The position numbers were made by a program, and so were the translations under genes. A DNA stretch of 63,187 bases, counting the filler, from Kipferlia bialata (taxonomy: Eukaryota): the NCBI GenBank assembly GCA_003568945.1. It is 6 parts of 6 records of this genome, joined end to end, with 100 filler letters (N's around TTAATTAATTAA, not from the genome) between each part and the next. Parts side by side here need not be neighbours in the genome. Positions count along the whole stretch, not along the records: positions 1 to 13,017 come from BDIP01000999.1; positions 13,118 to 26,106 come from BDIP01001000.1; positions 26,207 to 39,186 come from BDIP01001001.1; 3 more parts are not named here. One strand, given 5' to 3'. Positions 1 through 45,520 of the stretch are shown one piece after another. The notes below the pieces were generated by a model, which searched no databases, was not told where the DNA came from, and saw nothing but the letters and a program-made list of their open reading frames with translations. Numbering within the stretch: position 1 is the stretch's first letter; every line of letters starts with the position of its first letter.

Positions 1-258
1 TGGAAGTGACCATGCTGCATACCCCTACTTTCCCTCCGGAGCGTCACCCCCCCCCCCCCCCCTTTCCCCCCCCCCTCTCCCCCCTTCTCTCCCTTGTTGA
101 GGCTTCAATACCCAGTTACTAGTCTCATTCTATGACTCTCTCTCTACCTCCCCCCCTCTCTCTCCCCCCTTGTTGTCAGGCATTGTGCTATGTCGAGTGT
201 GACCCAGTATCTCTCTCTCCCCCTCTGTCTCTTTCTCCCTTTACACCCTTTACACCAG

Positions 259-2649
259 GCATTGTGCAGTGCAATGTCGAGTGTGACCTTGGCCCAGCCA
301 CTCAGAGGGCAGTCAACATAGTATTGGAGGAGTGTTCGGTATGTGCAGTATATACTATATATATATGTATATGTATACTATAGTATACTATATACTAATA
401 TACCTTATATATACCTTGGTCCAGCCACACAGAGGAATGGTCTGTGCGTATGCATTGCATACTGTCTTTCACTAGTGTTACGTATATATGCAAGAATAGT
501 CACTTATACCCTCCGTACATCTAACGTCTACCCACCGTACGTCTAACCTCCAGTCCAGGGGCATGGCTGAGGTTGCCATTGAGGGGGAGAGGCAGATGTC
601 CAGGTATTAGTATACTAGGCCTAGTACATATTCATGTATATGCATATAGGGTATGTCAATTCTATACTGAGAGAGTGTGTGAGCCAGGTACTTCATATAC
701 AGTATACTGTTACATCTAGGGTATGTGTATTTAGGCACGTCATAGAGAGAGTGTGGGACAGATGACAAGGAAAAGAGTACTATTGCATATAGGAGTGTGC
801 GTTTAGAGTATGTATGAATTAAAAGGGGAAGAGGGGGAGAGGGGGAGAGAAACAGATATATTTATGGGAAGGATAACTTACACAATTGGTAAGAAGAACG
901 TAGAACGTTGTGGATTGGCATGTATGTATGGTCTTCTCACCCCCCAGGAGCAGCGAGAGGATAGCTTCCTCCATGGCCAGGTTCAAGACAGCACTGGTGA
1001 GTATGAATGTATATATCAATATAGATATACAGAAAGATACACATATAGTATTAGTATAGCTGTATATGTGTCTGCCTCCATGGCCAGGTTCAAGACAGCA
1101 CTGGTATGTTATGTGCCTGTATATATCCATGTACATAGTCTCTTGGCCAGAAAGCCTGAGGTCTCTCTCTCTCTCTCTCTCTAGACCCTTACACTCAGGT
1201 TGCTTGTGCCGGTGAGCTGAGGCAGGATGACGTGCAGAAGATGCACAACCAGGGTATGTACTGTGTACTGTAGAATGCATTCTAGACTATTAGTATTATA
1301 TATATATACCCAGGGTATGTATATTATAGATAGTATATTCATAATTACTATTGCATATATGTGTATATTGTATGTACGTTTACTAATGACGTGCAGAAGA
1401 TGCGCAACCAGGGTATGACTATTATGGATACTACACGTATTATTCACTTGTTTCACTAGATTTTTCATTGCTATCATTCATTACAATTATACGTGAATAT
1501 ATATTGATGATGTTCAGAAGATCCATACTTGTGTGCTCTCTCTTCCCCCCTCTACACACCTAATCCCCAGTCACCTCCTCCAAGCATGTGCTGGACAACC
1601 TCGACTCTCTCTCTCTCTCTCTCTCTCTCTCCCTACATCCCTAATGCTAAGTCACCTCCTCCAAGCATGTGCTGGACAACCTGCTCCAGCCCCACTCCCC
1701 CCCTCAGGATGCACCACCATCACCCGTGGTGGAGGTATACATATGTAATATACATATACGTAGAGAGAGAGAGAGAGATACATGGCGCTGATCATATGCT
1801 ATAAATGTGTATATATAGTAGTTTACTGTGTATTTATGTATATACCCTACTCCCCCCCTCAGGATGCCGCCCCGTCACCCGTGGTGGAGGTATATATACG
1901 ATATATATATACATTCAGACATATAAATATATACTGAGAGAGAGAATAGATATATATATATCCTCTTCCCCTCAGGATGCACCACCCTCACCCGTGGTGG
2001 AGGTATTTCAATACACACACATGTATATGTATAGACAGAAAAAGGGGGAATACACTAGTGCATATATAAGTATATGTCCACCCCCCTCAGAATGGACCCC
2101 CGTGGTGGAGGTATGTATATGCATATGTACATGCACATGCACCCATATATTGATAGAGAAGTATACTACGACGGTGGGCACCCACTCTCTCTTTCTCTCT
2201 TCTGATCTATGGGCCTCTCTCTTCACCCTGGCCACCACCATCCATACCTCTCTCTCTACATATATGTATATATATATGTATATATATATGTAATCTTTTC
2301 ACTCCCTCTCCCTCCAGGCCTCTCTCTTCACCCTTGCCACCACCCTCCATACCTCTCTCTCTCTCTCTCTCTCTCTACCTCTCTCATACACACACACATA
2401 TACACTCACTCCAGGCCTCCCTCTTCACCCTGGCCACCACCCTCCATGCCAGACGGGCAGTGCTTGAGACGGTATGTATTAGTGTATATACACTATGTAT
2501 ATATGTATTGTATATAAATATATGTATATATATATGTGCCACCCCCCTCCATTGATATGTATTATGTATAGATACACTAAATAGTTTCAACACTCTATGC
2601 CAGACGGGTGATGGGCATCGCTAGAGACAGTATGATGTAGAGTTACTGC

Positions 2650-2695
<46 letters not shown>

Positions 2696-5203
2696 ACACC
2701 CTTTTTACAATAGGAGTCCACTGCTGCCTATGCTGAGACCGATGCCATCAGTGCATCTCTCTCTCTCTCTGTCTCTCTCTCTCTCCCTCCCTACACCCCT
2801 TAACACTAGGAATCTGCAGCTGCCTATGCTGAGACCGATGCCATCACTGCATCTCTCTCTCTCTCTCTTTCTCTCCCTCTCTCTACCCCCTTTTTACAAT
2901 AGGAGTCCACAGCTGCCTATGCTGAGACCGATGCCATCAGTGCATCTCTCACCAAGTCATGCACAGTGGCAGAGAGTGCAAGAGATAAGGCTGTGGCAGA
3001 GCTATTGGAAGTCAAGGTAGGATTATACGTGTTCCTATACATATATTACAAGAATTATAGAGAGTGGAAGAGAGTGCATCTCTCACTAAGTCATGCACAG
3101 TGGCAGAGAGTGCTAGAGATAGAGCTGTGGCTGAATTGCTGGAAGTGAAGGTAAGAGTTAGATGTATATATATATATAGTGAGAGAGGGGGGGGGGCTAA
3201 GTCATGCACAGTGGCAGAGAGTGCTAGGGATAGGACTGTTGCTCAACTCTTGGAAGTAAAGGTGTGTAGGTATATATATATTTAGAGAGAGAGAGAGATG
3301 GACCTAGTCATGCACAGTGGCAGATGGGGCAAGGTTAGTAGCTACTTGAAGTCATTCACCCCATATTCCCTCCCTCAACATATTCACCCCCTCAACATAT
3401 CATTAATACCCAAGCCAAGGCTCTATCTCCCCCCCTTACCCTCATTCTCTCCCTCCCTACACCCTTATTCTCCAGGCCAAGCATGCTGCCCAGTCTCTCT
3501 CTCTCTCTCTCTCTCTCTCCCCCTCTACCCCTTTTATATGTCACTAATTCTCCAGGCCAAGCAGGCTGCCAGTCTCTCTCTCTCTCTCCCTCCCTACACC
3601 CTTAATCNNNNNNNNNNNNNNNNNNNNTCTCTCTCTCTCTCTCCCTCCCTACACCCTTAATCTACAGGCCAAGCAGGCTGCCCAGTCTGTCTCTCTCTCC
3701 TTCTCTCTTACCCCTTCTCTACACCCTTACTGTTCAGGCCAAGCAGGCTGCCCAGTCCCCAGCCATTGGTGCCCTGGTGAGGGAGGTGGCTGCCAAGGAG
3801 GTATGCTTCAAAGAGTATAGTATAATATACTTCTCTTTCAATATATGATTATATAGTGTATACAATCTATACTATGGATGAACGTATTTCATTACACAGT
3901 AGTATAGTGAGATATCTAAACTTGTATCTTGTATCTCTATCTCCATCTACACCCTTAGTGTCAGCGTCGGTATGCCAAGCTGGTCTCTGTATTCCTTTTT
4001 TCTTTCTCTCCCTCTGCACCCTTATTGTCAGCGTGAGTATGCCAAGCTGGTTGAGTGGAACAAGCTCGAGAGGGAGAGAGAGAAGCAGAGAGAGAAGGTA
4101 TGTGTATGTTTGGGAGGGGAAGGGTATATGTACCTTGGAAGCCATCCGTATTTGGTGTGTAGTTAATCATAGATGGAGCACAGGTCTTTACATACTATTC
4201 GTGTTACTATACTGTATGCTAACTGTAGTAGGCCCTCCGTCAAGAGGCCGAGACTATGTATAACTTGTATATAGTATAGAGTGTCGTGTACATAGAGATT
4301 TCTCAATGTATGTATTCATACTCTAACAGGAAGACCTTCGACTTCAGGCTACTGCATACCGTACGTGTATATTGTATATACATTTATACTGACCACAGGA
4401 GGCCCTTCGCCTTCAGGCCGAGAGGGCCAGAGAGGCAGAGAGAGATATATATATACTACCTTATTATAAGTATATATATTACGCATACTAATTGAATTCA
4501 TATGTATATATATATACTAATAATAGGAAGCACTTCGCCTTCAGGCCGAGAGGGCCAGGGAGGCAGAGCGGGAGAGAGAGAGGAAGGAGCAGGAGGAAGC
4601 TAGGGAGGCAGCTAGAGAGGTATAGATACACATATATACACAAACACATATACATGTAAGGAATATCGTGTTTGTATTCCACATATGTACACATTCCATT
4701 CATGTATCTCACTCTCAAGTTGCCAGGTCGTGTAGTTATGTTACTATATCATGTATATACCTCACCCTTAGATTGCCAGACAGAAGGCTGCCGAGAGAGA
4801 TGCCATCAAGGAGAGGGAGAGGCAGGAGAGGGAGGTGAGTATAGTGTGTATATAGTATGTACTATGTACTATATATACTGTACATACTATATATGCCGAT
4901 AGAGATGCTGCCAAGGAGAAAGAGAGGCAGGAGAGAGAGGTAGGGAGTGCTATCGATGGACTATACGTACTGAGAACTATCTATGTCTAGATACAATAGT
5001 TATGTGTATACTATATCTACTGAAAGAGATGCCATCAAGGAGAGGGAGAGACAGGAGAGGGAGGTATGATAAATGTATATGCATGTATATGTAGTCACTA
5101 ATACATATATATACTATGCATGCTATATATACTGAGAGAGATGCCATCAAGGAGAGAGAGAGGCAGGGGAGGGAGGTATGATATATGTATATGTATATGC
5201 TAT

Positions 5204-5234
<31 letters not shown>

Positions 5235-8200
5235 GAATACCCCTACTGAGAGAGATGCTGCCAAGGAGAGGGAGAGGTAGGAGAGAGAGGTATAGTATGA
5301 TATGTTCACCTCATACATATGCTATATACACTATATATACTATGGATACTACATATACAATACACCTAATGAGAGGGAAGACATCAAGGAGAGGGAGAGA
5401 CAGGAGAGGGATGTATATAGTATTGTGTATACACTATGTACTATATATGTATACACTACCAATACTATACAATATATATATATTAGCCGAGAGATGACCT
5501 CTGACGTATAAATCTCTATAATCATTCTTATTAATTAGTATTCTTATAAATATTAACTATAATTCTTAACGTGTGAGGCTGCCAAGTAGAAGGAGAGACT
5601 CGAGACACTATATATGTAGTATACACACCTGATTGTTGTGGTGTTTACTATATATATATATGTATATACTAACGTGTCAGGCCATCAAGGAGAAGGAGAG
5701 GCTCGAGAGGGAGGCCGAGAGAGAGAAGGACAGACTGGAGAGAGAGGTGTGAATATGTATAGGATATTCATCGCTTTCCTTCACTGTATCCCAGTTACAT
5801 GCCCGTATCAGTGTATATCTCTCTACAGCCTCATTTTAGCTTTCCTTCCTTTACTCTTCTTTTAGTTTCTCTCTCCATCGACACCTATATTCTGTTTTGA
5901 AAACAGTGTTTTCTCTCCCCCGCTACACCCTCATTCCAGGCTGACAAGGAGCAGATCAGGCTAGAGAAGCAGAAGGAGAGGGAGGAGAGAGAGAGAGTGG
6001 CTGCCATACTGGCAGAGGCCGCAAAGAGGAGAGAGGTATGTGTATGATAGTATTGTATGGATATTTGTTGAATATATACATATGCATATATATATGTACA
6101 ATCTATGTATGAATATTTGTATCGCTTCCATTCTAGCAGAGGCCGCAAAGAGGAGAGAGGTATACTATATGTATACATATAGCGTATATATATATGTAGC
6201 ACTACTACTACTACTTTTGGCTATTTTCCACTAGACCCTTATTTTTGGTCTAGACCCTTATATCAGGAGGAGAAGGAGAAGGAGAGGCTTGCCAAGGAGG
6301 CAGAGAGAGAGATTGAGAGAGAGAAGGAGAGAGAGGCTGCTAGGGTGAGAGAGGCAGAGAGAGAGGCAGAGAGAGAGAAGGCCAGAGAAGCAGCACGGGA
6401 GGCAGCTAGAATCGCTGCAGAGGTATATCCATTTGTATACACATCCTATACAGTATCTCTTGCACCCTTACTAATTTATGCCACTGGACCCTTTTTCCAT
6501 TAATGTCAGGCCAAGGAGAAGGAGAGAGAGATTGAGAGGGAGAGACTCAAGAAGGAGAGGGAGATTGCACGGGAGATTGCCAAGGAGAGAGAGGCAAAGA
6601 GGGCATTAGAAAAGGTATACATATATATATATGTATAGAGAGAGAGAGAGAGAGAGAGATTGCCAAGGAGAGAGAGGCAAAGAGGGCATTGGAGAAGGTA
6701 TATATACATATATATGTATATATATAGAGAGAGAGAGAGAGATTGCCAAGGAGAGAGAGGCAAAGAGAGCCTTAGAGAAGGTATATATACACATATATAT
6801 ATGGTATATATACCTTCATATACATAGAGAGAGGGGGAGATTTCCAAGGAGAGATTATATGAGTATATTTAGTGTTTGTCCTAGATTGATACCAGGAGAA
6901 GGAGAGGGTGGAGAGGGAGAGAGACGAGGTCTTTACATACATTGTATTCCTATGTATTCTGTATATATGTTTCGTGTTTATAAATGATAATGTATATATA
7001 CTGACTGATCACCAGGAGAAGGAGAGGGTGGAGAGAGAGAGACACGGTCTATGTACTATAGTATATATATATGAATACATTATATACGTTATACGTGTTC
7101 TGGCTATAGGCTGATACCAGGAGAAGGAGAGGGTGGAGAGAGAGAGAGACAAGTTCTATATACTATTGTAATCTATACTCTAGTATGTATGTATATATAT
7201 TCTCCATATACGTTATAGTATGTATATATGTATTCTATATGTATACTGATCACCAGGAGAAGGAGAGGGTGGAGAGGGAGAGAGAGGTCCAGGCTGCCAG
7301 GGAGGCCGCTATCAAGAGAGCGGAGGAGAGGGAGAGAGAGAAGCTGGTGGCACAGGAGACAGCTAGGTATGTGTGCATGTCTCAGTGTATTGAGAGGGGG
7401 GGGGTGCAGGCCCAAGGGGCAGCCAGATAGATACACATATCTGATCTATGCAGTAATAGTGTTACTTACTCCCCAGGCTGAGGGCTGCCGAGAGAGAGAG
7501 AGAGAAGGCAGAGAGAGAGGCCGAGAGGGAAGCAAAGAGAGAGGCAGCAAGAGAGGCAAAGAGGTATTGTATGTAAATATGAATTTTGAATAGATACACA
7601 TGAATATAGACATTTATATGTATTTTTGTATTTAGTAATAGGAGGCAGCAAGAGAAGGCAAAGAGGTGAGAGTTCTTATTGTATGATAATTATTGAAATA
7701 TGTACCTGAGGAAGGATTCTTGCTATACTTTGATACTATTTAGTAATAATGAGAGGCAGCCAGAGAGGTAAAGAGGTGAGTATAACTATAAGATGTATAG
7801 TGTATATATTAAGTAGCAGTAGACTCTTACATGACTCACTTATTCCAATGACTGCCGTTTGACTAACGTTTCAGGCTGAAGAAGGCTGAGAAGGAGAGAG
7901 AGAAGCTCGAGCGTGAGAAGGAGAGAGAGAGGGTCAGAAGAGCTGCAGAGGTACGTACTCTACTTGACATCCCTATATACATGTAGATACTTATGTATAG
8001 TAACAGGGTCACTAGACCCTTATTCTCCCCTGGCCCCTTATTTTCAGGAGGAGAAGGCCCGTATAGCCGCAGAGAGAGAGGCAGAGAGGCAGATGGAGAG
8101 AGAGAGGGCCCTGAAGCAGAGGGAGATCGCGCTGAAGGTATATATATATACATTCTATTATTCTTCAGTGAATGTATTATGTATATGGTATAATCACACC

Positions 8201-8715
8201 ATAGTACCAATTGTACAAGCTGGATTATGTATAACAATTATTACCATGATATATACTAATGATATCAGGCCGAACTAGCTGCCCTCCAGCAGTCCAAGGC
8301 AGAGACAAAGGGTGCAGATATAAAGGGTGCAGAGACCGAGGAGACTGAGCAGGTAACTAGATACAGGAGAGATGTGGTAGTTACTGGACCAAAGAGAAAG
8401 ATAGAGGGTGCAGAGACAAAGGGTGCAGAGACAAAGGGTGCAGAGATAGAGGGTGCAGAGATAGAGGGTGCAGACTGAGGAGGCTGAGCAGGTAACTAAA
8501 GAGAAGGGAGAGACGTAGTAGATACTGGACCCTTAGCTCCCTTTGGACCCTTATGCCAGGAGAAGGCAGCAGAGACTGTAGAGGAGAAGGAGGTTGCAAC
8601 ACCTGAGGCTGTCCCTGCTGAGGAAGTGCCTACTGTGGCAGAGGGAGAGACAGAGACAGAGGCAGAGGCAGAGAGAGAGGGAGAGGGAGAGGTCTCTGAG
8701 GAGCAGGTGGAGTAG
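259..8715 (+). CDS. Multi-exon (~20) protein with long E/R/K/A-rich coiled-coil or single-alpha-helix region and acidic C-tail; 5'-partial, function unknown
   Basis: GT-AG exons splice in consistent phase: IVQCNVECDLGPATQRAVNIVLEECS / SRGMAEVAIEGERQMSR / ... / ESTAAYAETDAISASLTKSCTVAESARDKAVAELLEVK (2903-3016) / EEKEKERLAKEAEREIEREKEREAAR... / ...EGEVSEEQVE, stop TAG 8713-8715. Confidence 0.8.
2714..3351 (+). repeat. Half-exon echo array around exon 2903-3016
   Basis: 5' echoes at 2714 and 2810 (acceptor plus first ~47 nt, running into (CT)n); 3' echoes at 3073-3150, 3199-3261 and a degenerate one at ~3306-3351. Confidence 0.9.
3608..3627. other. Scaffold gap (20 N)
   Basis: N run inside an echo array in an intron. 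Confidence 0.98.
4790..5415 (+). repeat. Five 3' half-exon echoes of GAGAGAGATGCCATCAAGGAGAGGGAGAGGCAGGAGAGGGAG|GT
   Basis: Copies near 4900, 5022, 5133, 5248 and 5371, separated by TA-rich spacers. Confidence 0.85.
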
Positions 8716-9038: not shown

Positions 9039-11672
9039 ATGCTGGGTGATGCTAAGGCTGGGCAGAGCACAAATAGGTCAGTGTCGATACGGTAGCTGAG
9101 CTTCTAGCTCCCTCTCTCAAAATCTATATATCAACAATAGTGTCCTATGTCCGCTCTCCCCCTCTCTTTCTCTGTTCTCACCCTGGTCACCATCTCTGTC
9201 TCTCCCCCCCCCCTCACTTCCAATAATAGTATCCATGTCTGTCTCTCTCTTTCAGTGACCTTACCCAGATGATCAGACCCATCCCGGACACCATATCGCT
9301 CTCTCTCTCTCTCTTTCATCAATAGTATCCATCTCTCTTTCTCTCTCTCTCATCAATAGTGTCCATACCTGTCTCTCTCTCTTTCATCAATAGTTTCATG
9401 TCTCTCTCACTATTCTAGTGTTCTTACGCAGGTCACCCCCATGCCAGACCACATCTTACGTACATAAATAGTGTCCATCTCTCTCTCCGTATATATACAT
9501 ATCAATCATTGTATCCTCATCCAGGTCACCCCCATGCAAGACCACAACATCTCTCTCTCTCTCTCTCTCTCTCTCCGTATATATACATATCAATGATTGT
9601 GTTCTTACCCAGGTCACCCCCATGCAAGACCACACCATCCACCAGATCTGATGCATACAAGGTGTGAACATATCCCTCCCCCCCCATAATCAGTATATAT
9701 ATGTCCACTATGTGTATCTGATGCAAGGGTGACCCCCCTACCACTTTGCAATTCTCTCTCTGTCTTGCTCGCTACCCCCCCCCCCCACCCGCGCTTTTTG
9801 CACTTCTCTCTCTCTACACCCTATTTCCCCTACCCCCACTGGTCTCTCTCTACACCCTCTTTCACCTACGTTCTCTTTTCCCCCAACACGCTTGAGAATT
9901 ATGGATGGTAAAATTCTTTTACATATGGATTGGCGGGGTAAGATCCCTATGTATACAACTTCAAGTTGCTTGTACTCTAACTCCAGCCGTCTGTCTTCAA
10001 GAGAGCACGTCAAAAGTGTGGCGTAGAAGGTGGCGAGAAGAGTATAGAGAGACCAGCCAAGAGAGCCCCTGCAACCTCTGGTACCAGTAGCATTGAGTAT
10101 ATGGTGATCAACTCCACTGCTAGGAGGAGTTTTGATACTGTAGTACACCCGAATGGGGACATGTACACTGGGTATGTGTTAGACGGTGTACCACATGGGT
10201 ATGGCAAGCTGGTCCGTGCGAATGGAGACACATACAAGGGTGAGTGGGAGAGAGGCAGGAGGAGTGGTCAGGGTACATACACTAGTGTGACAGGTGAATA
10301 CACTGGTACATGGGTGTGTGACCTGCAGAGTGGCCAGGGTGTCTGTGTGTACTCAGATGGAGCATGCTACGAGGGAGGGTGGGTAGAGGGGGAGAGGAGT
10401 GGGCACGGTATGTATGATGCTGCAGATGGGTCTACCTATGTAGGAGAGTGGAGCAAGGACAAGATGCACGGTGAGGGTGTGTGCATATACACAGATGCGC
10501 GCTATGAGGGCGGGTGGGAAGATGGTTACAAGTGTGGGACCGGATACTGCGTTAATGTCACAGGGGATGTCTACAGAGGAGAGTGGAAGGGGGGAGAGAG
10601 GAGTGGACAGGGGGAGTGCCTGTATGCAGGGGATGGATCTAGGTATCAGGTAAGGATGGAACTGAAACATGGTTCCTCTCTTTCTCCTTCTCTGTTCTCT
10701 TAATGCAGGGTGCGTGGCTGGGTGACAGGTGGAACGGACATGGGGTGTTACTACACACTAACGGAGACCGGTATGAGGGGGAGTATCAGAGCGGAAAGCT
10801 GCACGGGAAGGTACGCATATGTTCGGGCAAGCTCTCATCATATACACTACCAATCGAAGATAGAGTATTGTGGTATAGGACGGAGTACATAAACAGCTCA
10901 TAGAAAGGTTTTGTACACCTTGAATGACGGTACGAGGTATGAGGGTGAGATGAGGCAGGGTCAGAGGAGTGGGTATGGGGTACAAGTACTGCCGGATGGT
11001 GATAGGTATGAGGGAGAGTGGGAGTGTGACCTATATAGCGGCCATGGTACACACACACACGCCAATGGCAACGTCTATGTAGGAGACCACAAGCGGGGTA
11101 AGATGCATGGGCAGGGGGTGTTCACATTCGTAGATGGCAGGTAGGCTTCTATATCCCTATACTTTAGCTCATATTACTATATCACAGTGATATTATCACC
11201 TATGTCTATACACATAGAAGTATGATAGTATAGGTATTGTCAGTTTCTATCAATTTACTCGGTCCATTATCACTAATGGAAGGCGGTACGAGGGTGAAGT
11301 GAGTTGCGATCACTTCTGCGGCAATGGATCATTTGAATGGCCTGATGGTAGGTGTGTGGTCAACTCAGTAGTGTCATGTTGTTACAGTATACTTCATCAA
11401 CGTGACACTATTCTAGTAAAATTGAAGTTATCTTCTGTATCCTCGCTAAACGTCGAGTCTGTAGGCTGTCTGCGTTCCTTCTCCATCTCTCTGTAGTACA
11501 GAACTTTCCTATAACTTAAGAGTAAGTCATGAGTTATGATAATGCCAGGAAATACGTGGGACAGTTTGTACATAGCCAGATGAATGGACGTGGGACATTC
11601 ACTGATAGTGATGGGACAAATATCCACGGAGAGTGGCTTTGTGGGAAATTCATTCAATGCAGACCACCATAG
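9039..11672 (+). CDS. MORN-repeat protein
   Basis: ATG 9039; exons about 9039-9076, 9613-9661, 9987-10649, 10709-10810, 10908-11140, 11283-11351, 11549-11672 (TAG). Many YxGxWxxGxrxGxG repeats, e.g. NGDTYKGEWERGRRSGQGTY and DGDRYEGEWECDLYSGHGTH. Confidence 0.9.
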
Positions 11673-13117: not shown

Positions 13118-13444
13118 CAGGGGAGTGGAAGAGGAGACGGGCTAGGCCCAGACGCTGCTTCTCTCCACCTGACGTTAGGAAGTACTAACCATATCACTCA
13201 AGATGTATAGTATATGTACGTAACCATAGGAATAGTATTAGTGTATGTATAAAGATAGAGTATGATACAGGATTTTTCTAGTAGTACCTGATAACATCTC
13301 GGCCCAGGGCTCCCTGGACTCCAGGGTGTAGGACTCAAGGAGGTAGTCCAGCTGACACACGTGGAGGACAGACTTGAACACATAGGCAGGGGTGCTCACG
13401 ACATCAGCTGGGGGTGAGAATGTATATATATACTATAGATACAT

Positions 13445-13479
<35 letters not shown>

Positions 13480-25400: not shown

Positions 25401-26020
25401 GGGGCTGGTTGAGGATCTGAGGGTCAGTGATATATATATATACTTATATATGTATATGACATATATACAAAGGGGGCTGGTGGAGGATCTGAGGGTAAGT
25501 GATGTATACATACTATTACTATATAGTACTATCCACAATGATATTCAATATAACACACCTTAGTCAAGACCAGCTGCACCAGGACGTATCCCACAATACA
25601 TATTAACTCTATAATAGTAATATATATATACATATATATATATAAGTACTATACAATATGTATAATACTTGATCACCACTGATGATACATGCCTTAGTCA
25701 AGACCAGCTGCACCAGGACGTATCCCACAATGCTCCATATAAACATATGTAATCATAGATACTATACATGTTGTACTATATATATCATATAATAGCCAGT
25801 GTATAACTTACAATACATGCCTTGGTGAGGACCAGCTGCACCAGGACGTATCCCACAATGCTCCAACTCATATAGTATATGAGTCATATACATGTATACA
25901 CCATTACTATATAGTATCATATAATATGACATACCTTTGTCAAGACTATCTGCACCAGCACGTATCCCACTATGCACCACAGTTGCCAGGCCGGGATACC
26001 CACATGGAGGACGGCAATGG
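13118..26020 (-). CDS. Full-size ABC transporter, subfamily D (TMD-NBD-TMD-NBD); partial at both ends
   Basis: EAA motif 1 EQERLEGQLRYHHVAVREGAEAIAFFSGDE (~24870-25400). NBD1: Walker A GPSGIGKSS, FVPQTPY, signature LSGGEKQRLGLARLLFHSP, Walker B AVMDESTAAL, SVAHR. Continuous linker exons. TMD2: APDQRISAD and EAEGAMRYTHSRSREFCESIAFYKG. NBD2: GPSGCGKSS, FFVPQHTY, LSGGEKQRLGLARLLFHSP. Confidence 0.92.
22141..22580 (-). repeat. 3' half-exon echo array in ABCD gene (DDTELGWHGVSLATPG)
   Basis: Live segment 22533-22580; echoes 22433-22480 and 22333-22380; degenerate copies at ~22215 and ~22145. Confidence 0.9.
24116..24781 (-). repeat. 5' half-exon echo array in ABCD gene (HERAVADKQLEAVIA)
   Basis: Live exon 24116-24208; echoes 24286-24330, 24391-24435, 24519-24563, 24637-24669, 24755-24781. 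Confidence 0.9.
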
Positions 26021-26057
26021 CTGTATATAAGAGGAAGGGAGACATATACATGTATAC

Positions 26058-26106
<49 letters not shown>

Positions 26107-26206: not shown

Positions 26207-26235
26207 TATATATATATATACTCTCTTACTCCTAG

Positions 26236-29200
26236 GACACCCTCTATGACATGCACATGGCCCTTGGCGTGTCAGTGCTCAGGAGCATGCAGGTCACGCA
26301 GGTATCATTATATATATGTATATTAATACACAAGGTGTAAGGTGTGATACATACATATCACGCATGTATGATATATATATTGCAATATATATACCCTTAT
26401 AGATACCCATGCACATGTGAGTGTCAGTGCTCAGGAGCATGCAGGTCAGTATGATCCATAAACGTGGTGTATGTCGTGTTCTAACTCATTTTGTGTATAT
26501 CCTATAGTTCCTTTTGAGTTTCTGGTATACTTACCCCTCCAGGTCACTGTCGTTGTGTGTCAGCTCTGGCGGTCCCTGCCCCAGCTGAGGTGTCACTACC
26601 TCAGGTATGCATGGGTCAATATATACCTCAATTCTATATTGAATACTGACTCAATTATGGTACGTTGCATGCTTCACTGATGCTGATACTGATACTGATA
26701 CTACCTCAGGTATGCAAGGGTCAATATACATCTGCTCTGATGTGGATTTTCTTCAATGTCTATACTGATACCAATATGATGATTTGCGTATTCTCTCTGT
26801 TTAGATACCCCTCTCATATTTATTTCGTTATATATATATATATATATATATATGATTGTATATACCCCTCTCATTGTCAGGTCTGTCAGGCACCGCAGGC
26901 AGGAGCCAGTGGATATGCACTGTGCCCACTCCATCTTTGGATACGGGGCACTGGAGGGAGAAGTAGTGAGAGAGGCATCTGTCAGGTATGGAGTATAGTG
27001 AATATAGTACAGAGTGTATAGTAATGGTGATATGCACATGTGGCATACAATCTCTTACATCTAGGTCCCAGTGCAATGCCCAGTTCTCTGAAGCTACACA
27101 GACGCATATATATACATGTATAGCTAGAGTAATATACATGCTATTTCATTAACAACCAGATCCCAGTGCAATGCCCAGTTCTCTGATGCACTCAAGCTGG
27201 ACATGGCAGGGTTGAAGGCTATTCCAAGGTGTGTACATATACATATATATAGTTATGTATATAAGTATGTGTGTATATGCACTCAAGCTGGACATTGCTG
27301 GGCTCAAGGCTATTCCAAGGTAAGAATCAGTATCAGTATTCCTATCTTTATTGCATCTCTATTTCTGGACATCGTAGAAACCTAGAAAATATAGAAGTCT
27401 AACTTCCTAGGAACGGTGCCTTTGAGTGTCTGACTGTGGCAGGCAGTGCAGCGGGGAGGGAGGGCGCAATGCAGGTATACACACTATATCTATATTTATA
27501 TATCTGTCTATATATAGTGTGTATATATAGAATATCATATCATATATATAAAGAGAGAGGGGGAGAGAGAGAGATTATCTGTATCTGTGTTGTCAGTGCA
27601 GCTGGCAGGGAATGCGCAATGCAGGTATTCATACATACACAACCATACGTATATGTATAGCGTAGTATTTCATTGTGCAGTATGATATATGAAGCTGGGA
27701 CACAAGCTATTTCTCCAAGTGTCTCCATCCCTCCCCCCCCCTCCATTTCCCCTTTTAGAAAGGTATGTGTCATTCTATGTCGTCTCACCCTTAGGAGCAG
27801 CTCCTGTCCCTGCGTCCCTCCAGTGGATACACACACAGTGTGGCAGTGGACGTGTCATTCAGACACACACAGGTATAGAGTGTGTATACATATCCATTCA
27901 TATAGGTTCTATACTGAAGTGTCCATCCTAACCCCAGACCACCCTGGGTGCCGAGGAGATCCTCTGCCAGATACTGGAGCACCCCATACTCAGGTACGCA
28001 ATAACATATTTACATGTCAATCTTTACATGTCAATTGTTGTGAATTGAGTACCCCGCTTGCTTGGCTTTCACTCTGTCTCACAGTATAGTTGCATAAGTT
28101 CATTGGTATATCATTTAGTATATCAACGATTATTGCTTAGATTGCTTTCACTGCTCTCACCCCTTCAGAATGGCAGTCCGCATGAGATACATGAACGACG
28201 CCTCGAGGCGCTTTGCAATCAAGGTATCTGTCTACCAATGTACAATTGTAATGAAATGCACTAGGCAACATTTGTGTTTCCTATTGCCACTATTCTAATG
28301 GTATTGAGTTATATTTGGTTATTGGATTAGTAGCAATGCCCTAACCCGTTAGGATAGCCATCTCCCCACCTACGAGTATGCCTATGACTATGGCCCCCTG
28401 GACCAGCTGCTGAGGACGATGAAGCACATCGAGTATGCAGTCATGTACATACCCAAGCAGGTATACTAATATACAGTGTATATGTAGTGTATAGTATGTA
28501 TATACATACATAGAGAGAGAGAGACCATGAAACACATCGAGTATGCAGTCATGTACATACCCAAGCAGGTAGTGGTATAGATAATGATTATTTTACACTT
28601 ACACATGTGTAAATGTATATTCCTTCGGATTGTGCTTCCCAGCAGCATTTCCTTGTGCATATCGAAATGGATGTCTACTTCTATACCATGTGCGAATGCG
28701 CCCTTGCTCACTCTAGATCGTTGCCCCCAGCGGTATCTCCCTCGTCCATGTCATCAGACTGGGCTGCAGATGGACAGAGGGGGAGAGAGACCTCTCAGAG
28801 GAGCAGGAGAGACTGGCTGAGAGCACCGCCCTTGCTAACCCACACTACAGTGCTAGTATGTCCCCCACTACCACTTCTAGAGAGACCATGGGTGATACTA
28901 GAGAGAGGTCCTACATGATATCCAACGAGACCTCCCACCCCATACCATCCCCCACCAGAGGGGGTAGGGCAATGACTAGAGACCTGTCTGCATCGATGCT
29001 CAGCACAGCACCTGCCCCATCTCAGGTGTGTATATGTATGTGTGTATATATAAATATATATGATACATTGTGTTTATTATACATTATATATATAGTATGT
29101 CTGCATCGATGCTAAGTGCAGCACCGGCACCTGCACAGGTATGTATATATATATATATATATGTATATATAGTATATATAGTATATACGTATATGTCTTC

Positions 29201-32200
29201 ATCGATGCTAAGTGCAGCACCTCATGTATGAATATATGTGTGTATATATGGTGCAGTGTGGTGATATTTGTGATGCATACTTCTCACTCTAGGCCGGCAT
29301 GGAGAGAGAGAGAGAGATGTCCGTTGGTGCCGAACAGCGTGGTGTCTCTGTGGTGCGTCGGAGAGTGCCCCCCTCCCACTCTAGGTAATCTCAAATACTA
29401 CTCACAATACTATATAATTGTTTATATTCTTATGTAATTATGAAATCTTAGAATATACTCCCACTCTAGGACACCCCTTGCCCCGTACACACCCCTACCC
29501 ACACCTGAATCCTTAAATACTATATAAAATACTATAGTATTATATGTAATCTAATGAACCACTCCCACTCTAGGACACCCCTTGCCCAGTACACACCCCT
29601 GCCCACACCTGACCTGGCTCAGATCAGTGGAGGGGCTGAGACACAAGTATGTATTATTTATATCTATCTATATATATTTATATATATTATATCAGTTCTT
29701 TGGAGGGGCTGATACAGGTAGGTATCCCTTTTCCGTTGGATAATTATTGCATGTATTCCACACTTTTGTATATGCATATATCTTTGTGTAGAAGGTTAGT
29801 TACTGACCCCCCAGGGCGATGCCCAGTACGGTGACCTATCCACCAGTGGCCTAGGTGGTAAGGATAGGGAGAGAGAGAGAGGAACATCCCCACATGCAGG
29901 GGGGTCCCCTCTCTCATCCTCCAGCCGTCTCGACCGTTCAGACCGTCTGGACCGTTCTGGCCTCTCCCCTACCCTGGCTGGCTCAGACTCCTCTATATCA
30001 GGGTCTCTGAGACTGGAGACACTACTCAAGGGACTGGGACTCTCTATCACGGCAACAAGGTGCGGTATCGCAGTATATACGACGTAGAAAACATTTGTAT
30101 CGAGTATGCTTATGATTCTCTTCTCTAATTTTTAGGCTCCAGACCCCCCCTCGCTCTGTGTCTCTGTCGGTGCTGCACAGGCAGAGGGTGTCACTCAGTC
30201 TGCAGGTGATTATTGTTATATATATGTGAATTATATATACACATGTATGAATATACAAACTATGGATATATACATGTGTGTGTCTCTGTCTGTCCTTCAT
30301 AGACAGAGGGTGTCCCTGAGCTTACAGGTGTGGACTCATACGTATTGTTATACATTTTTGTCTATGTGCGCATATGAGTACTATATACTATCCTTAAGGC
30401 AGAGGTTTTCCTTGAGCGTCCAGATAGTATAATAATAACCAATCAGATGTATTCGGGTATTATTTGGAGACATTTATCAGTAATATAGTAAAGTTCCCTT
30501 ACCTCTAGGACCAGCTCCTAGCCCTTGTGTGTCTCAGTCCTATATACACATCATATTATATATATATATATATATGTATGTGTGTGGGTGGGTGTATTTC
30601 CATGTCTTACGCCTAGGATCAGTTACTGGCCCGTGCCCTTGTGTGTCTCAGTCCTGTAGCAGTCATACTACACATTAATACACATGTAACAGTATATATA
30701 TATCGGTGTCCTTAACAACAGGATCAGCTCCTGGCCCGTGCCCTCCTCTGTCTGAGGCACAGCCAGGCACAGACCGGACAGGGGTACAGAGACATGTTCA
30801 ATGCATTCTATGCTAGGTATGACTCTATGTATATAATTATCTTTTAGGTGTATGACATACGGGTGTATGTATATACAGTATGTAGTCGAGTACATACAAA
30901 GCAGGCTACTATATTTCTGTAACGACCTTTACGAGTACATACATATTTGTATATATGTCTAACCCCTAGGCACCGCGATTGCCAGATGATCCCAAGAGTA
31001 TATGAATATGTATATAGATAGTATATGTATATATATATATATAAATATAGTATATGTATATATAGTATGTTCTATTCATGTATATTGTGGATATGTCTGA
31101 CTGCTAGGCACCGTGATGGCCAGGTGATCCCAAGTGGTGTGTCACCCATACCCACCCTGGCACTCAGGTATGAATGTGTATATATATATATATACGCATA
31201 TGGGTAATTCATTTTAATATTCATTAGAGAAATCAATCACTGATTGTCTCACCCCCAGGTCCTCCTAGACCCAGCCCAGACATAACTTTGGATATTTCCC
31301 TCCACTATTCCTCTATGTTGGTGTATGTCTCTACAGCATGTGCATCTCACCCCCAGGTCCTCCTATCCCAGCCCAGACAGACTCGCCCACCTGCAGAGGG
31401 AGAAGGTACATGATATGGCAATGTATTCGTATTTGAATGTATTGTTTACATTTCGCATCTCACAATCAGATCTTTGAGACCCCTATCTTAACTCTTACAT
31501 GCATATATAATTATATATACTCACATTTAGATCTTTGATACCCTGGACGTCAACCTCGACTACGAGCACCCCTACGCCGAGACGTCCAGCCCCACCCCCG
31601 CACCCCTGTCCCTCACTCCATTCCTCTCAATGCTGTGTGACAAGTATGCACTGTCACCCACATCCACACTCGCACAGTCACCGGCCGGGGTGTCACCCTC
31701 CAAGGTATGTATGTATGTGTATATGTATTTAGTTATACAAATTTGTATATATATATATACCCAATAATGTATAGTTGTCTCTTTGTCCTAACCCCCAGGC
31801 TGACTGTGGTATTGAGGTACACAGTGTATCATAGATACATGTATAGTGTAATATAGCTATATGTTATCATACTATGCATGCTATGCCTGACCCCAGGCTG
31901 ACTGTGGAATTGAGGTCCTGACTCGCCCTGCATCAGGGGCATTCCACCAGGTACAGATCCTGATAGATATATACTAATGTGCAAAGAAATACTATTGTAT
32001 ATTAATATATATAGAGAGAGAGTGATATATATATTTCTATACATTCCTCAGGGACATTCCACCAGCTGGGGTCATTATGCATCCCTCATATATGACCATA
32101 TCTATCCTATGCTATATATGTGTCCCAAATGTAGTATATATATATATTGAGAGACAGGATTCATATCCTCTAACCCCAGGTCAAGGCTGGTGTTGCCACC

Positions 32201-33824
32201 CTCCTGTCTACCCTGTACACACACCCAGAGGCACTTGTCTTTGTAGGTATGGTACACTTAATGATTCCTGTCTATCCCAATCCCAATAGCAATAGCAAGA
32301 CCTGGGTATGCTTACACACTGTATCATTGTATAAGTATTGCACTACGAGGCTGTGACATACAATTTATACCATTACTCATGCGTAAAATTCATGATTATT
32401 ATGTAAATGCAATATTGTTACATGATGTCTCACCCCAGGCCAGGGCCTAGACAGTGACTCTGCAATATTTACCAATATACATACTCTTGTTATATGACTG
32501 CAGTACATATATGTATATCTTGTTGTATACCCACTCCCCCCAGGCCAGGGCCTAGACTCCGAGTCATCCTCCCGCCCCCTCCTAGCCTCCATCCTTGTAC
32601 ATACCTTGCTGGCCCCTGCACCCTCTCTGTCCCTGTGCCAGTCATCGGCACTGCTCAACCAGAGCCACATACAGACACAGGTATATAGATATATATTTAT
32701 ATAAATTGTATGTTACCGCAAGATAGCTTATGTTGTTAAATATTTATGATAATTGTGGATAACATAGTGAAACCGCACTGATATCCAGGCCCAGTCCCCC
32801 TCACTGCCCCCAGTTGCCTTCTCCGCCACCCCCCTATCTCGCGTTGTGGCACTGACCATCTACATGCACTTTAAGGCAACGCAGGAGAGAGTGGCAGAGA
32901 GAGCACAGAGAGAGAGAGAGGACATCGTGGGCAGGTCCTGGCTAGACTGTCTACTAGGTGCATTGACAGAGAGTGACACATGTCTGGAGTGGGGCAGGGA
33001 AGTACTATCCACCTCTGTGTCCACCTTGGTTGAGTGGAGCAGACTGGGGTACGACCTACACGTTGAGCTCAACTCTCCACACGGTGTGGAGGCTGCCTGT
33101 GACAGGCTGGGTGACCTGTTGGCAGTGTTCACGGCATGCATATCAGAGTGTGTGACTAGCTGTCCACCCATGATCAGAGACACGCTCAGGTATATATATA
33201 TATATATATATGAATGAGTACACCATATATTCTGTATACTAAATATATGCTATATATATGTATTGTTGGTATCAAGGCCACGCTGTCCACCCATGATCAG
33301 AGACACGCTCAGGTATATGTATAGGCTTACACATTCTCTCTCTCTCTGTGTTACACTTTCTATCTCTATATTTATCCATTCATATATATATCGCTTCATA
33401 TCTGATTCTTAGGCACATGCGCACCTGGTACACAATCTCTCTCTCTCTCTCTCTTACTGACTCTCTTACAGTCAGACACATGCGCACCTGTGCCGGTGCC
33501 AACAATACCCAGGACCTCTCCTTTGCCAGACTGGTGGTGCATGCCCTGCTCAAGAAGTGTCTGAACCACCCTGTTGGGAGTGGTCTTGTATCCTACGAGA
33601 CAGGTATGCATATAAATATAAGTAGACAGATGTATATATACAATACTTACACTAGGACATGATGCACATGCCAGTGTCTTGTACTCCAACCTCTCCCTCC
33701 TTGGTGATATACTATGTATACTATATACACACACACATATATATATATATATAGTACTTACAATAGGCCATGACAGCCACGACAGTGTTCTGTACTCCAA
33801 CCTGTCTCTCCTTGGTGATATACC

Positions 33825-33866
<42 letters not shown>

Positions 33867-34349
33867 GTACTTACACTAGGCCACGACAGTGTTCTGTACT
33901 CCAACCTCTCTCTCCTTGCTGATGTACTATAGACACTATATATATATAATACGTACACTTACTTACCCTAGGTCATGACAGCCATGCCAACGTGCTGTAC
34001 TCCAACCTGTCTCTCCTGGCTGATGTCATTGAGACATGTGCATACCCAGACGGCAGTGTCATGTCACCCCTGCAGATGGGAGGGAGAGTGGCCAGTTGGG
34101 TCTACAAGATGAGGTAATGCACACTATACATCTATTACATGTATTCGTCTACTATTCATCATCTTACCGCTAGGGAGACCCTCACCTCTGTCCGTGCCAA
34201 CTCCCTATCAGTGGTTGCACAGCAGCTGGCAGACGGAGGCTCCCTCCTGACACCCCTGCCCATACCATACCCTCTGCCACAGAGTGTGGAGGGAGGGGTG
34301 GATAGAGAGCTACTCTCAGTGGCCCCCGTGGCAGGTATAGAGTACTATA

Positions 34350-34386
<37 letters not shown>

Positions 34387-34542
34387 GGAGGAGTGGACAG
34401 GGAGTTACTCTCTGTCGCACCAGTGGCAGGTATTATTCTTGCATAATTAGTTAGTTCACTCATGTATATTTATACATTTGGGTATATAACTCACCCCAAG
34501 CACTGTGATCCCGTGTTCCTCTGACATTGTTGACTGTCCCAT

Positions 34543-34581
<39 letters not shown>

Positions 34582-36934
34582 ACACCCTAGGTACTGTCAT
34601 CCCCTGCTCGTCTGACATTGTTGACTGTCTGGCCTCTCTCATACACGTCCAGATGCCCAGAATCACAAGGGGGTACCAGGTACACATACGAATACTACAT
34701 GTATTGTATACATCTTCATATACATATTCATATATGTGTTTGTGTGTCGTAGTGAGTATATATCTAACCCCCCAGTCCCTACACATTGATGATGGCCTGC
34801 AGTGCCCATCTCTCTCTCTCTATCTCTCTCTCTATATATATACATTCCTATTCATTAGTATACACCTTACCCCCAGTCCCTGCACATGGATGGTGGTCTG
34901 CAGTGCCTGGCCAGTGACAGCCATGTCTACAAGGAGACACAGGTGTGTTATACTATATTATATTATGGTATATATATGACAGACTAGAAATATGTATATA
35001 TGAATAGTGCTTATGTAGATGGAGTAACAGTCATGTCTACAAGCACACACAGGTATAGATTATTATATAATAGTATACATTTGAATGATATGTATGAAAT
35101 ATGTAATCTATTCCCACCATGAAGTCATACTGAGTGTGTTCCAATGTGTATTATTGTATATAAAGACGTAAGCTCACACATCAGACCTGCCTGGTCCATT
35201 GTCTGCCAGCTGTCTACAACTATACTATTATATACGTATATGTAAATGTTTCATATTCCTATTCCTAATATAGCTTCTCTCACCCCTCAGACCTCCCTGG
35301 TGCATGGTCTGCCAGCTGCTATACTAAATATAGTACTCTACACATTGGCGTATATATTGAGTGTACATATACACTATAGGCTTCCTGTCTATCTCACCCC
35401 TCAGACCTCGCTGGTGCATGGTCTGCCAGCTGTCAAGGCAGCGCTCAAGGGGGTGACCCCATTCACAAGGTACTTGTATATGTGTTAGACGGCGAGTGGA
35501 ATGTGCCAAGAATATTTTAGTACTATTTATACCTTCTCTAGTCTCTAAAGTCTAACCCTTAGATCCAAGGACAATGTGCTCTTCACAAGGTTCAGTGATG
35601 TGTATATATATAACTCATATATTCGTAGAAAGATATGTGTATGATATACGTTATCCTCTTAAGATTCACCCCCAGGCCCAGGGACAACGTGCTCTTCACA
35701 GCGTCTGTGTACAGGGACAGTGCAGGTGTGTGGATTAGAGTCAATACAAGGCATTCATTGCATGTATTAGTAGTGTTATACTCATTCCCACCTCTGCCTT
35801 TGCCACTGTGCTGAGGCATAAGTACTGATATACCTATATGTGTATATATGTAACCATGCAGTATCCCCACCTCTCACTGTGACAGAGACTAAATTGAATT
35901 ATTTGTTATTGCAATTATCTGTTGTGTTATAGATAGTCCATGGATACTTATATTTCCAAATTGATAGCTGTTCCCACCTGACGCTGTGCAGAGGCACAGG
36001 GTGGATGCATATGTATATTTATATACTCAAGTACTCATGCGTAAAGTCAATATCTCTAACCATGCAGGTGTTCCTACTAGTGCCTTTGACGCTGTCCAGA
36101 GACACAGGGTGGATGCTGACCCAGTCACAGCCCATGTCAACGAGGCAATACTGGACAGGTATGTGTATGTATAAATGTATGTGTGTATCCTATCATTGTA
36201 TATGTCTCATATCAGCTATGCCCTTGTGCAGAGTGGTGTCAGGATGGACAGTGTATATATATACATATATATATATTTATATATATATATAATACTGTAT
36301 ATACTCATCCCAGCTATGCCCTTGTGCAGAGTGGTGTCAGGATGGACAGGGACAGGGTGGACAGACACGTGTTCCAGAGGTATGGTGTATCATATATATA
36401 TATAGTTATACATAACACTTCCATAGTAAATCTGGATAGTATAATGTATATATATAATCATTGGTATGGACAGGGACAGGGTGGACAGGCATGTGAGTAT
36501 GGGAGTCATTTTAGAGAGAAACATTCTGGAGTATCATCTTGAAAGAAGTATGATATCTTGAGATAACAGAAATCAAAGTTTCTAATAATTGGTGTATCTT
36601 CTCACCCCAGGGCTGGTGAGTTCAGCCAGGGATACAGTGACCCCGTTGCTCGCACAAGGTATGGATGGTGGTGTCTCTCCAGCATTGTCTTGTGTGTGTA
36701 TATATATATACATAGGGATATCTCACATAGGGAGACTGTGGCCCTTTCCCATGCTCTCGCTCTCCATCTTTCTTAGATACGTTTCTCTTGTATATGAATC
36801 TATATCTATCTGACCCCAGGGAGGTTGTGACCCTTCTCCAGACCGAGTCCTCCAACATTGTGTACAGGACATACATCAGTGCACTGTACACAGAGCTGGA
36901 GGGATGTTTGGCAACAGCAATCCAGGTATAGTTC

Positions 36935-36968
<34 letters not shown>

Positions 36969-37656
36969 CGCATATATTAAATACACATGTATATATATAC
37001 ATCAGATCAGTGCTATTCAGGTTTGTATATAAATGGGTATATACCATTGCTCTATTTGATTATAGGTGTAAGTCAGTGTATTAGTGGTTCTTATGTATTA
37101 GTATACGTATAAGTATGTGTTACTATAAACATAGTCTTACCCCCAGGCCACCAACAGCACCACCGAGCAGTACCATATATATACTAATTATACATAATTG
37201 TACTTGTATTAATTATTATATAAATGTAAAATGTGTGTATTACACGCATGATTCTCACCTTAGGCCACCAACAGGCATAAGGATGTGTTATTATGTACAT
37301 GTTCTTACACTCAGAGTACCAACAGCACCAACGAGCAGTACCAGCGCTACCTAGCCCCATCCGGCACAGAGAGCACTGGGAGAGGGAGAGTGGGGGATAG
37401 TACCCCTAGGTCCCCCCTGCCTGCGCCCTTCTCCCCCCAGGCCCTGCCCATAGTGCCCATAGTGCCCATAGTGCCCATAGTGCCTATAGTACCCATAGTG
37501 CCTATAGTACCCATGGTATCATCCCCACCTGTGTCTGCACACCCTGCTGTGACACCACCCCTGTCCAGACCCTCAAAGCTGAGGTATATACATGTATACA
37601 TATATATATATGCTTACTTATATACTCAAAGCTCAGGTATTGTATATATTGCTATG

Positions 37657-37688
<32 letters not shown>

Positions 37689-38372
37689 TTATAGTATTCA
37701 TGTATATATACACCCTGCCGTGACACCACCACTGTCCAGACCCTCAAAGCTAAGGTGTATAGTATATCTACTAAACAAATATATATATGGAGTGATAAGC
37801 ATTGTGTTCCCTATTAATTGGCTCTCATACCCAGGTTTGTGACCGATGAGAGTGGGTTTGTGGTGAGTAAGGGTCCAAGGGAGGCTGGGGCAGTGACCCC
37901 ACCCACCCCAGACGGGTACTACACTGAGGTATGGATATATGTATACGGCATAGACATGTATTGTTAATATATATATTCATGTATATCACACCAACCCCAG
38001 GACCAGCCCGACCTGCCCCTCCAGTCAGCTGCCCTTGCCAACCCACCCACACCCACTGTGTCTGGTACATCTAGTACCTACAGTGCCTATAACACCACTG
38101 GTACCACTGGTATGGGTAGGAGTAGACTGGCAGTGTCGTGGAGCAGTGCTAAGCAGCCAGAGCCAGTGAGGGAGAGGCAGCCCGAGAGGAGTGGGCGCCC
38201 TGTTGTGTCCTGGAGCAAGGCACCCTCCCAGGCTGAGCTAGAGAGAGAGAGAGAGCAGAGAGAGCAGAGGGAGGCTGCCGCTAGAGCCCCCTCCCACACA
38301 CCCTCCCCTGTCGATGGAGGGACGCAGTTCTACTCACTCCTGCAGTCATTCAGGTCCAGACAGGGACAATAG
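26236..38372 (+). CDS. Large multi-exon protein with a divergent RasGAP-like domain, possible RasGAP_C-like segment and Pro/Ser-rich tail; 5'-partial
   Basis: More than 30 phase-compatible exons ending ...LLQSFRSRQGQ* (TAG 38370-38372). The segment GREVLSTSVSTLV...VELNS...SCPPMIRDTLRHMRTCAG...LVVHALLKKCLNHPVGSGLV...SNLSLLADVIETCA follows the order of RasGAP helices; ...NEQYQRYL recalls RasGAP_C. The gene is well supported; the domain call is an inference. Confidence 0.6.
33656..34030 (+). repeat. 5' half-exon echo array in RasGAP-like gene (GHDSHANVLYSNLSLLAD)
   Basis: Echoes start at 33656, 33767 and 33880; live exon starts at 33972. Confidence 0.9.
37446..37513 (+). repeat. 9-bp coding tandem repeat (GCCCATAGT-like) encoding (PIV)x7
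   Basis: Direct reading: LPIVPIVPIVPIVPIVPIVPIVPMV. Confidence 0.9.

Positions 38373-45486: not shown

Positions 45487-45520
<34 letters not shown>

Follow-up and report, generated by a model that had tools for sequence, protein, structure and literature searches.

Half-exon echoes in the introns of three Kipferlia bialata genes and the silent bias of their differences

Exon echoes in three intron-rich genes

Kipferlia bialata is a free-living fornicate with a short-read SPAdes assembly and 124,912 GT-AG introns, and it is the sole intron-rich fornicate named in the genome paper (PMC5874029). A survey of its spliceosome found 87 of 174 proteins and no small nuclear RNA candidates (PMC6679479). 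The window analysed here, a stretch of 63,187 nucleotides (nt), consists of six K. bialata contigs joined by N spacers. Three of its genes carry in many introns partial copies of the adjacent exon, referred to below as echoes, and the echo catalogue covers these three genes with their 93 introns:

259..8715, plus strand: gene for a helical (charged, repetitive) protein; a 21-exon model with 36 echoes, spread over 12 of 20 introns
13119..26020, minus strand: ABCD-type transporter gene (NCBI KIPB_004621); a 39-exon model with 49 echoes, spread over 27 of 38 introns
26235..38372, plus strand: third gene, called RasGAP-like in a preliminary description, family unconfirmed; a 36-exon model with 33 echoes, spread over 25 of 35 introns

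All three gene models read open. The helical model comes from a gene finder with hand curation, made without RNA, and its frame is open to the stop. For the ABCD gene, protein P0001 (100% identical) was placed exactly on 38 exons, with two hand edits: one upstream exon was added and one exon was lengthened to a GC donor. At exon 14019-14113 (minus strand) the NCBI model stops at 26 nt; a 95-nt version with a GC donor stays in frame and regains the second Walker A motif, which is also present in the paralog P0002. The nearest relatives of P0001 are this Kipferlia paralog (75%) and proteins of Aduncisulcus and Dysnectes. The first ten exons of the third gene were taken from RNA joints across nine introns and the remainder from the gene finder, with five predicted segments deleted and two exon ends altered by hand. 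Pfam confirmed the ABCD and MORN identities of the preliminary description. The RasGAP-like label was not confirmed: single exons of the third gene, the only form compared with Pfam and Atlas, gave no family, and no full-length protein for it was matched among 477 candidates.

Echoes were located by aligning each exon to the introns, with a per-exon threshold above its best score against all non-adjacent introns. Adjacent introns gave 123 forward matches and a single reverse-strand match (186 exon-side tests each), an orientation bias of the kind for which the preliminary description had proposed a genome-wide alignment as a check. Next-but-one introns gave eight forward and two reverse matches (180 tests each), all ten in the GA-rich helical gene. 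After removal of 5 overlapping matches, 118 echoes remain in 64 of the 93 introns, arranged in 79 arrays of one to five copies (54 single-copy, 25 multi-copy), so that many introns of all three genes hold partial exon copies as described. A self-BLAST of the window found 103 local direct repeats shorter than 1.5 kb, 101 of them on contigs 1-3 and a few being coding repeats, and no inverted ones.

The fixed geometry reported earlier is found throughout. Upstream echoes anchored at an exon boundary begin at the exon 5' end (47) and downstream ones finish at the exon 3' end (54), with none of these 101 the opposite way round; a further 17 echoes are internal, 15 of them on the expected exon half and two not. 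No echo covers both exon ends, and the largest represents 73% of its exon. Where an intron holds both kinds, the downstream echoes precede the upstream ones (15 of 15). The median echo is 31 nt long and lies 73 nt (median) from its exon. Splice sites are mostly retained at the anchored end, with AG in 42 of 47 upstream echoes and GT in 46 of 54 downstream ones (GC in three more), and the acceptor flank of echoes is 65% identical, compared with 39% in controls. At the broken end the other splice site is missing, since a donor stands there in 1 of 53 and an acceptor in 2 of 65 copies (background 5%). Microsatellites are enriched beside the breaks, although not as the rule that had been claimed: a strong dinucleotide run stands at the broken end in 18 of 53 copies upstream of their exon and in 20 of 65 downstream ones, where the background is 14.5%.

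Median strengths of decoy and true sites are 8.7 vs 10.3 and 8.7 vs 10.0 bits, and 17 of 47 decoy acceptors and 17 of 54 decoy donors score at least as high as the true site. In the three genes, 52% of intron bases lie in stretches bounded by the true site and its outermost decoy, and the intron core outside these stretches has a median of 101 nt, similar to echo-free introns. Both figures bear out the suggestion of a general process that duplicates splice junctions and inflates introns. Two further intron properties are shared by the three genes. A strong proto-splice-site bias is present, the upstream exon ending in AG at 85 of 93 introns and the next exon starting with G at 63, and in 81 of 93 introns a branch-point-like motif begins 10-12 nt before the intron ends, a tight spacing that resembles that of diplomonad introns (PMC6679479).

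Elsewhere in the window, echoes were also reported, correctly, for MORN intron 1 (two copies at threshold) and the cyclase-like gene (three in six introns). The five comparison genes are automatic models, and by reading of their translations they include putative PI4K-like, WD40-like, TBC-like and cyclase-like genes. Four of them yielded a single doubtful low-complexity match in 66 introns, with intron medians of 57-96 nt, so the word 'pervasive' suits each of the three genes and not the window as a whole. The regions 39287-58500 and 61900-63187 hold four genes with short, less TA-rich introns that are practically echo-free. The ABCD paralog P0002 (KIPB_007633, 931 amino acids) lies on a contig of just 7,233 bases. 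Because of the four nearly echo-free genes and the small contig of P0002, the number of echoes seems tied to the region of the genome rather than to the protein encoded.

Splicing past the echoes and the growth of arrays

Two sequencing runs, X1 and X2, were compared over 26215-29150. X1 possibly represents the reads behind the assembly and is therefore a check on that assembly rather than an independent sample; X2 is not recorded as RNA and is presumed to be RNA from its spliced behaviour. Contigs of X1, 622-910 bases long, span exons and echoes at a flat depth of 430-450, and words common to exon 28353-28460 and its echo have a depth of 983, about twice the single-copy value of 445. These observations make it extremely improbable that echoes are an assembly artefact, an explanation that could appeal to the short-read SPAdes assembly (PMC5874029) and to the possible dependence of X1 on the same reads. 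Only 15 of the 118 echoes are identical to their exon, and an assembler makes no codon-aware differences of the sort set out in the next section.

One X2 contig of 4,995 bases contains nine GT-AG exon-to-exon joints, skips five echoes and differs from the exons at no letter. In the third gene the spliceosome thus skips echoes, as seen in the dominant contig, and the intact decoys of the preliminary description are indeed left in place and passed over. From the first exon on, this contig has 3,662 bases, and model base 3,662 corresponds to position 37474. The third gene has a 9-base coding repeat (Pro-Ile-Val) at 37445-37514 (plus strand), and its first repeated 30-mer ends at 37474, where the contig must break. 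The size is therefore consistent with the modelled splicing of 33 introns and their 32 echoes, in a check that is blind to length-neutral swaps and to rare isoforms, as contigs drop rare variants. True sites are chosen in this gene despite near-equal decoys, as would be expected under exon definition, a proposed pairing of splice sites across exons.

In eight arrays the units, intron DNA included, still follow one another head to tail, with a period of 83-151 and 77-91% matches according to Tandem Repeats Finder (TRF). Sibling breakpoints lie within 3 nt of each other in most of the 25 multi-copy arrays; since array copies mostly reuse one breakpoint, arrays grow by re-duplication of the first junction. 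Along these 25 arrays the copy nearest the exon scores higher in 14, lower in 9 and equal in 2.

The fixed geometry very probably needs no special system, as tandem duplication combined with selection would suffice. From the anatomy of the arrays, a duplication with one end in the exon and the other in the flanking intron would leave the gene intact and yield either two successive units of acceptor plus exon head followed by the tail, or a head followed by two successive units of tail plus donor. The gene would survive when the inner acceptor or the first donor serves. In most cases, copies of a whole exon and the reciprocal deletions would do harm and be purged, and introns would therefore ratchet longer. 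Metamonads lack non-homologous end joining, and in Fornicata two Dmc1 paralogs replace Rad51A (PMC8516963). Because of these absences, it is a reasonable guess that the first junction arises by homologous repair completed by alternative end joining.

A different origin, in which echoes are pieces of unspliced pre-mRNA inserted by RNA- or complementary DNA-templated repair, would account for every copy being sense-oriented beside its source, and transcript-templated repair has been named as a general route of homologous recombination (PMC8516963). Head-to-tail arrays with shared breakpoints fit DNA duplication instead, and an RNA copy of the resident allele would give none of the silent bias described below. 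This origin is very improbable.

Silent bias and the source of the exon copies

A strong synonymous bias is the most unusual property of the echoes and was missed in the preliminary description. Differences between echo and exon fall on codon positions 1, 2 and 3 as 63, 39 and 229. Zero-fold sites differ at 93 of 2507 (3.7%) and four-fold sites at 139 of 674 (20.6%), a ratio of 0.18 (bootstrap 0.13-0.24 over 79 arrays); two-fold sites show 9.3% transitions and 2.5% transversions. The ratio is 0.28, 0.18 and 0.12 by gene and 0.13 in fixed windows, and wrong reading frames reverse it (2.2, 6.5). Differences between echoes are likewise biased, with a silent proportion (pS) of 0.27 and a replacement proportion (pN) of 0.054, and replacement changes are milder than random (44% vs 30% with BLOSUM62 of at least 1).

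Alignment or detection bias was rejected as a cause: an echo simulated as neutral from birth beside a constrained exon and treated with the same aligner still gives 0.45-0.55. CpG was rejected as well, since 125 of 626 four-fold sites outside CpG still differ. Where flanks are best preserved, in the 13 of 94 echoes that beat all controls, the co-duplicated intron DNA is 20.8% different and zero-fold sites 4.8%, so intron DNA is not slow. Flank similarity and silent divergence show no significant link (rho -0.18, p 0.09), and zero-fold and four-fold divergence are uncorrelated across echoes (rho -0.03, n 61). From the ratio of 0.18 together with the 20.8% in intron DNA it follows that both copies were mostly under protein selection during their separate history.

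This conclusion bears directly on plain clonal duplication, under which echoes preserve earlier states of the exon and the silent bias reflects only constraint on the evolving exon itself. At four residues where ABCD echoes differ from their exon they agree with the paralog, and the exon therefore changed there; in addition, neutral evolution of the younger copy was compatible with a sibling-pair test (below). Clonal duplication predicts a ratio near 0.5 or higher, compared with the observed 0.18 and its upper bound of 0.24, and it would require intron-located DNA to mutate about five times more slowly than silent sites, whereas the co-duplicated intron DNA is 21% different. In toy populations, six clonal settings with 60 replicates gave pooled ratios of 0.62-0.84 and no single replicate below 0.45; a first, noisy two-seed simulation had one clonal replicate at 0.42. 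Clonal duplication is accordingly regarded as quite improbable.

Selection in place, by translation of echoes now or recently through alternative splicing (in a life stage or in rare isoforms), would explain the strong protein-level conservation and the mild replacements, and a few in-frame mini-exon candidates and the loss of rare isoforms from contigs leave some room for it. The second splice site is absent, however, and decoy use would keep the frame in 30 of 96 cases, which is chance level, and be stop-free in six. The echoes contain 9 stops and 8 gaps, and the spliced X2 contig follows the exons. Use of the decoys by the spliceosome, which the preliminary description had allowed for, thus finds no support, and translation in place is distinctly unlikely.

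The known paralog P0002 was rejected as a donor: where it differs from the ABCD exons, 99 sites of the echoes match the exon, 8 the paralog and 3 neither. As only one copy works at a time in a clonal lineage, in-place use is unlikely and the paralog is not the donor, diverged alleles or homeologs remain. A homeolog from past hybridisation or genome doubling, or a close paralog, followed by loss of heterozygosity and with no ongoing sex, is an unlikely donor. Four-fold divergence is not significantly overdispersed (dispersion 1.19, p 0.12) and fits one divergence depth, as a homeolog would predict, and the strain appears homozygous over the stretch compared (26215-29150). The failure of P0002 as donor speaks against it, as do private silent variants in siblings, which suggest more than two sources; silent variants among siblings fall 57 to the near copy, 52 to the far copy and 42 to the exon, with all different at 11.

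On balance, the exon halves of echoes probably stem from other working alleles that had diverged, and frequent unequal recombination would have copied them. In such a process the working exon would mispair with an echo on the homologous chromosome, and a recently working half-exon would enter the echo position. In the toy populations inter-allele exchange reaches the ratio of 0.18 (pS 0.25, pN 0.044, silent diversity 0.2) in the two highest-rate of six settings, which shows that the process is sufficient and does not prove it. The more silently diverged sibling has no more replacement changes than the other (31 silent and 16 replacement, vs 8 and 19).

Several results weigh against copying from alleles. 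To reach 0.18, each 40-site unit has to undergo exchange about 240 times as often as a single site mutates, and rates of 8-80 times gave 0.40-0.73. The predicted gradient of decay is absent: zero-fold decay is equal in the splice-site and broken-end halves (41/1040, 36/934) and increases very little as echoes lie farther from the exon (p 0.55). Within sibling pairs, whichever copy has fewer silent changes private to it shows 8 silent against 19 replacement changes, a neutral-like pattern in a conservative test (p 0.32). Silent differences show a GC-to-AT excess in echoes (97 vs 63) that symmetric alleles do not explain, and dinucleotide microhomology is absent at exon breakpoints (1.00 vs 1.15). 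Searches for the alleles themselves were negative within their scope. No variant letters were present in 2.9 kb at 95% likeness, a level at which a much diverged allele would escape; the P0001 protein cluster has one member only; and no related locus was found in the metagenome scan among the matches listed. The only match among those listed (L001:3875-4162; 30% identity, bacterial-looking DNA) was judged to be chance. Silent diversity near 0.2 occurs in some eukaryotes. In the available text of the literature searched, such diversity finds no support in protists and sex is not shown for Kipferlia.

The wider proposal is that introns serve as an archive of the allele pool, in which unequal exchange between homologs makes echoes in certain, probably highly recombining, regions; the alleles in exchange would differ at about 20% of silent sites. 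The reduced spliceosome would meanwhile have to tell true sites apart from almost equal numbers of strong decoys. This proposal has about even chances of being right.

Individual arrays, related systems and significance

The arrays below illustrate the range of copy number and position; exons are given in the direction of their strand.

1845..2110, plus strand: three downstream echoes of exon 1652-1734 (exon-intron scan)
2663..2950, plus strand: head-to-tail array of period 93, made up of two upstream echoes together with exon 2903-3016's own acceptor and head (TRF, 84% matches)
3073..3333, plus strand: three downstream echoes of exon 2903-3016, differences mostly at third codon positions (exon-intron scan)
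4894..5411, plus strand: five echoes downstream of exon 4772-4834, repeated about every 112 nt (scan and TRF)
9432..9551, plus strand: two upstream echoes of exon 9613-9661, MORN gene intron 1 (scan; TRF period 88; Pfam MORN)
24285..24780, minus strand: five upstream echoes of exon 24208-24116, three with a common breakpoint, no amino-acid changes (scan and TRF)
25559..25865, minus strand: three echoes downstream of exon 26020-25935, with two amino-acid differences from it that match paralog P0002 (exon-intron scan)
28523..28568, plus strand: downstream echo of exon 28353-28460, GT intact, skipped in the spliced contig (depth 983 vs 445 for exon-shared words)
33667..33925, plus strand: three upstream echoes of exon 33972-34113, period 111, multi-base codon changes with the frame kept (scan and TRF)
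59098..59594, minus strand: cyclase-like gene with 6 introns; three echoes, of which two are upstream and one downstream (exon-intron scan)
1863-1889, 1976-2002 and 31799-31816, plus strand: predicted candidate mini-exons, in frame and stop-free, with strong acceptor and donor

The first two mini-exon candidates are 27 nt each and lie in two of the three echoes at 1845..2110, where an exon-internal motif resembles an acceptor. The size check on the spliced contig argues against simple inclusion of 31799-31816. Other small repeats lie close to echoes. MORN intron 1 has a 34-base tandem repeat of 3.3 copies at 9299-9408 (plus strand), upstream of the echoes and apparently without exon sequence, and in the helical gene a 15-base repeat at 8405-8474 (plus strand) is amplified within a downstream echo. 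In a single case, 29373-29384 and 29562-29573 (plus strand), the same 12 bases end an intron and the preceding exon, which is as expected if the intron was born by duplication. Across all 93 introns, likeness of intron end to exon end as a mark of intron birth was not significant (p 0.10, 0.42), and likeness of intron start to next exon start was weakly significant (p 0.015, 0.04, uncorrected).

The preliminary description knew of no account of such a system. The same kind of structure has been described in amphioxus as 'mirages', which are tandem duplications of both exon boundaries that carry AG/GT signals and leave splicing normal (PMC3087553). Their units measure 10-160 bp; they are unstable in length, their origin is stated as unclear, and they have been proposed as a model for intron gain (PMC3087553). 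Mirage loci include Adh3, the globins BflGb6 and BflGb9, troponin C and PGBD5, with units 81-100% alike, concerted evolution within a cluster, and copy number that varies between haplotypes and somatically (PMC3087553, PMC3902484).

Echoes share with mirages a direct tandem copy across the exon-intron boundary beside its source (123 matches vs 1; eight arrays with intron DNA), duplication of the exon boundary at the 5' as well as the 3' side (47 and 54), a minisatellite scale (TRF periods 83-151) and retained AG/GT signals with normal splicing undisturbed, the last observed for Kipferlia in one gene and its dominant contig. Because these four defining features of mirages are present, echoes are classed as a variant of the amphioxus-type mirage. 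What is new is the protist host, the extent to half of intron DNA, and the divergence pattern. Mirages are known at few loci, whereas in this unicellular metamonad 64 of 93 introns in three genes are affected. Kipferlia arrays are mostly single-copy (54 of 79) with a largely decayed intron part, and most flanks cannot be aligned. Unit likeness of 77-91% in the eight arrays, with 61 shared derived sites, compares with 81-100% in mirages. BflGb6 evolves concertedly, while in Kipferlia pS between echoes (0.27) is not below pS between echo and exon (0.24), and siblings are no closer to each other than to the exon at silent sites. The strong synonymous bias of Kipferlia goes unmentioned for mirages in the available text of both papers (PMC3087553, PMC3902484). 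A literature search, with subscription papers outside its scope, found in the text available to it no such repeats in Kipferlia or another protist and no synonymous bias in mirages.

Two other systems were compared. In Rogers-type intron gain by tandem duplication a new intron results, whereas the Kipferlia echo sites are unused in nine joints. No new spliced intron or exon from a duplicate of this type was present in those joints, and the size of the X2 contig fits without extra exons; the few in-frame mini-exon candidates are the only hints of this route. Tandem exon duplicates and mutually exclusive exons (PMC9013439, PMC8373072, PMC12343006) also place exon-like sequence with coding-type conservation in introns. 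These duplicates, as described in the available text, have the whole exon and both splice sites, which holds for none of the 118 echoes.

For annotation, the immediate consequence is that gene finders misread echo loci; the finder used here called echoes exons before curation. A zero-fold to four-fold ratio well below 0.5 indicates that both copies were under protein selection and points to exchange between alleles. The codon-level signal offers a direct test of mirage origin that can be applied to any single genome. If copying from alleles is correct, one genome would supply evidence of recombination and an estimate of diversity for a free-living fornicate, and about 100 near-perfect natural decoys would be available for the study of splice-site choice with a reduced spliceosome. 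It would also account for how long introns are in K. bialata, the sole fornicate that the genome paper names as intron-rich (PMC5874029). Sex, very high diversity and a ratchet, driven by recombination, towards introns of twice the length would then all be legible in a single homozygous genome.

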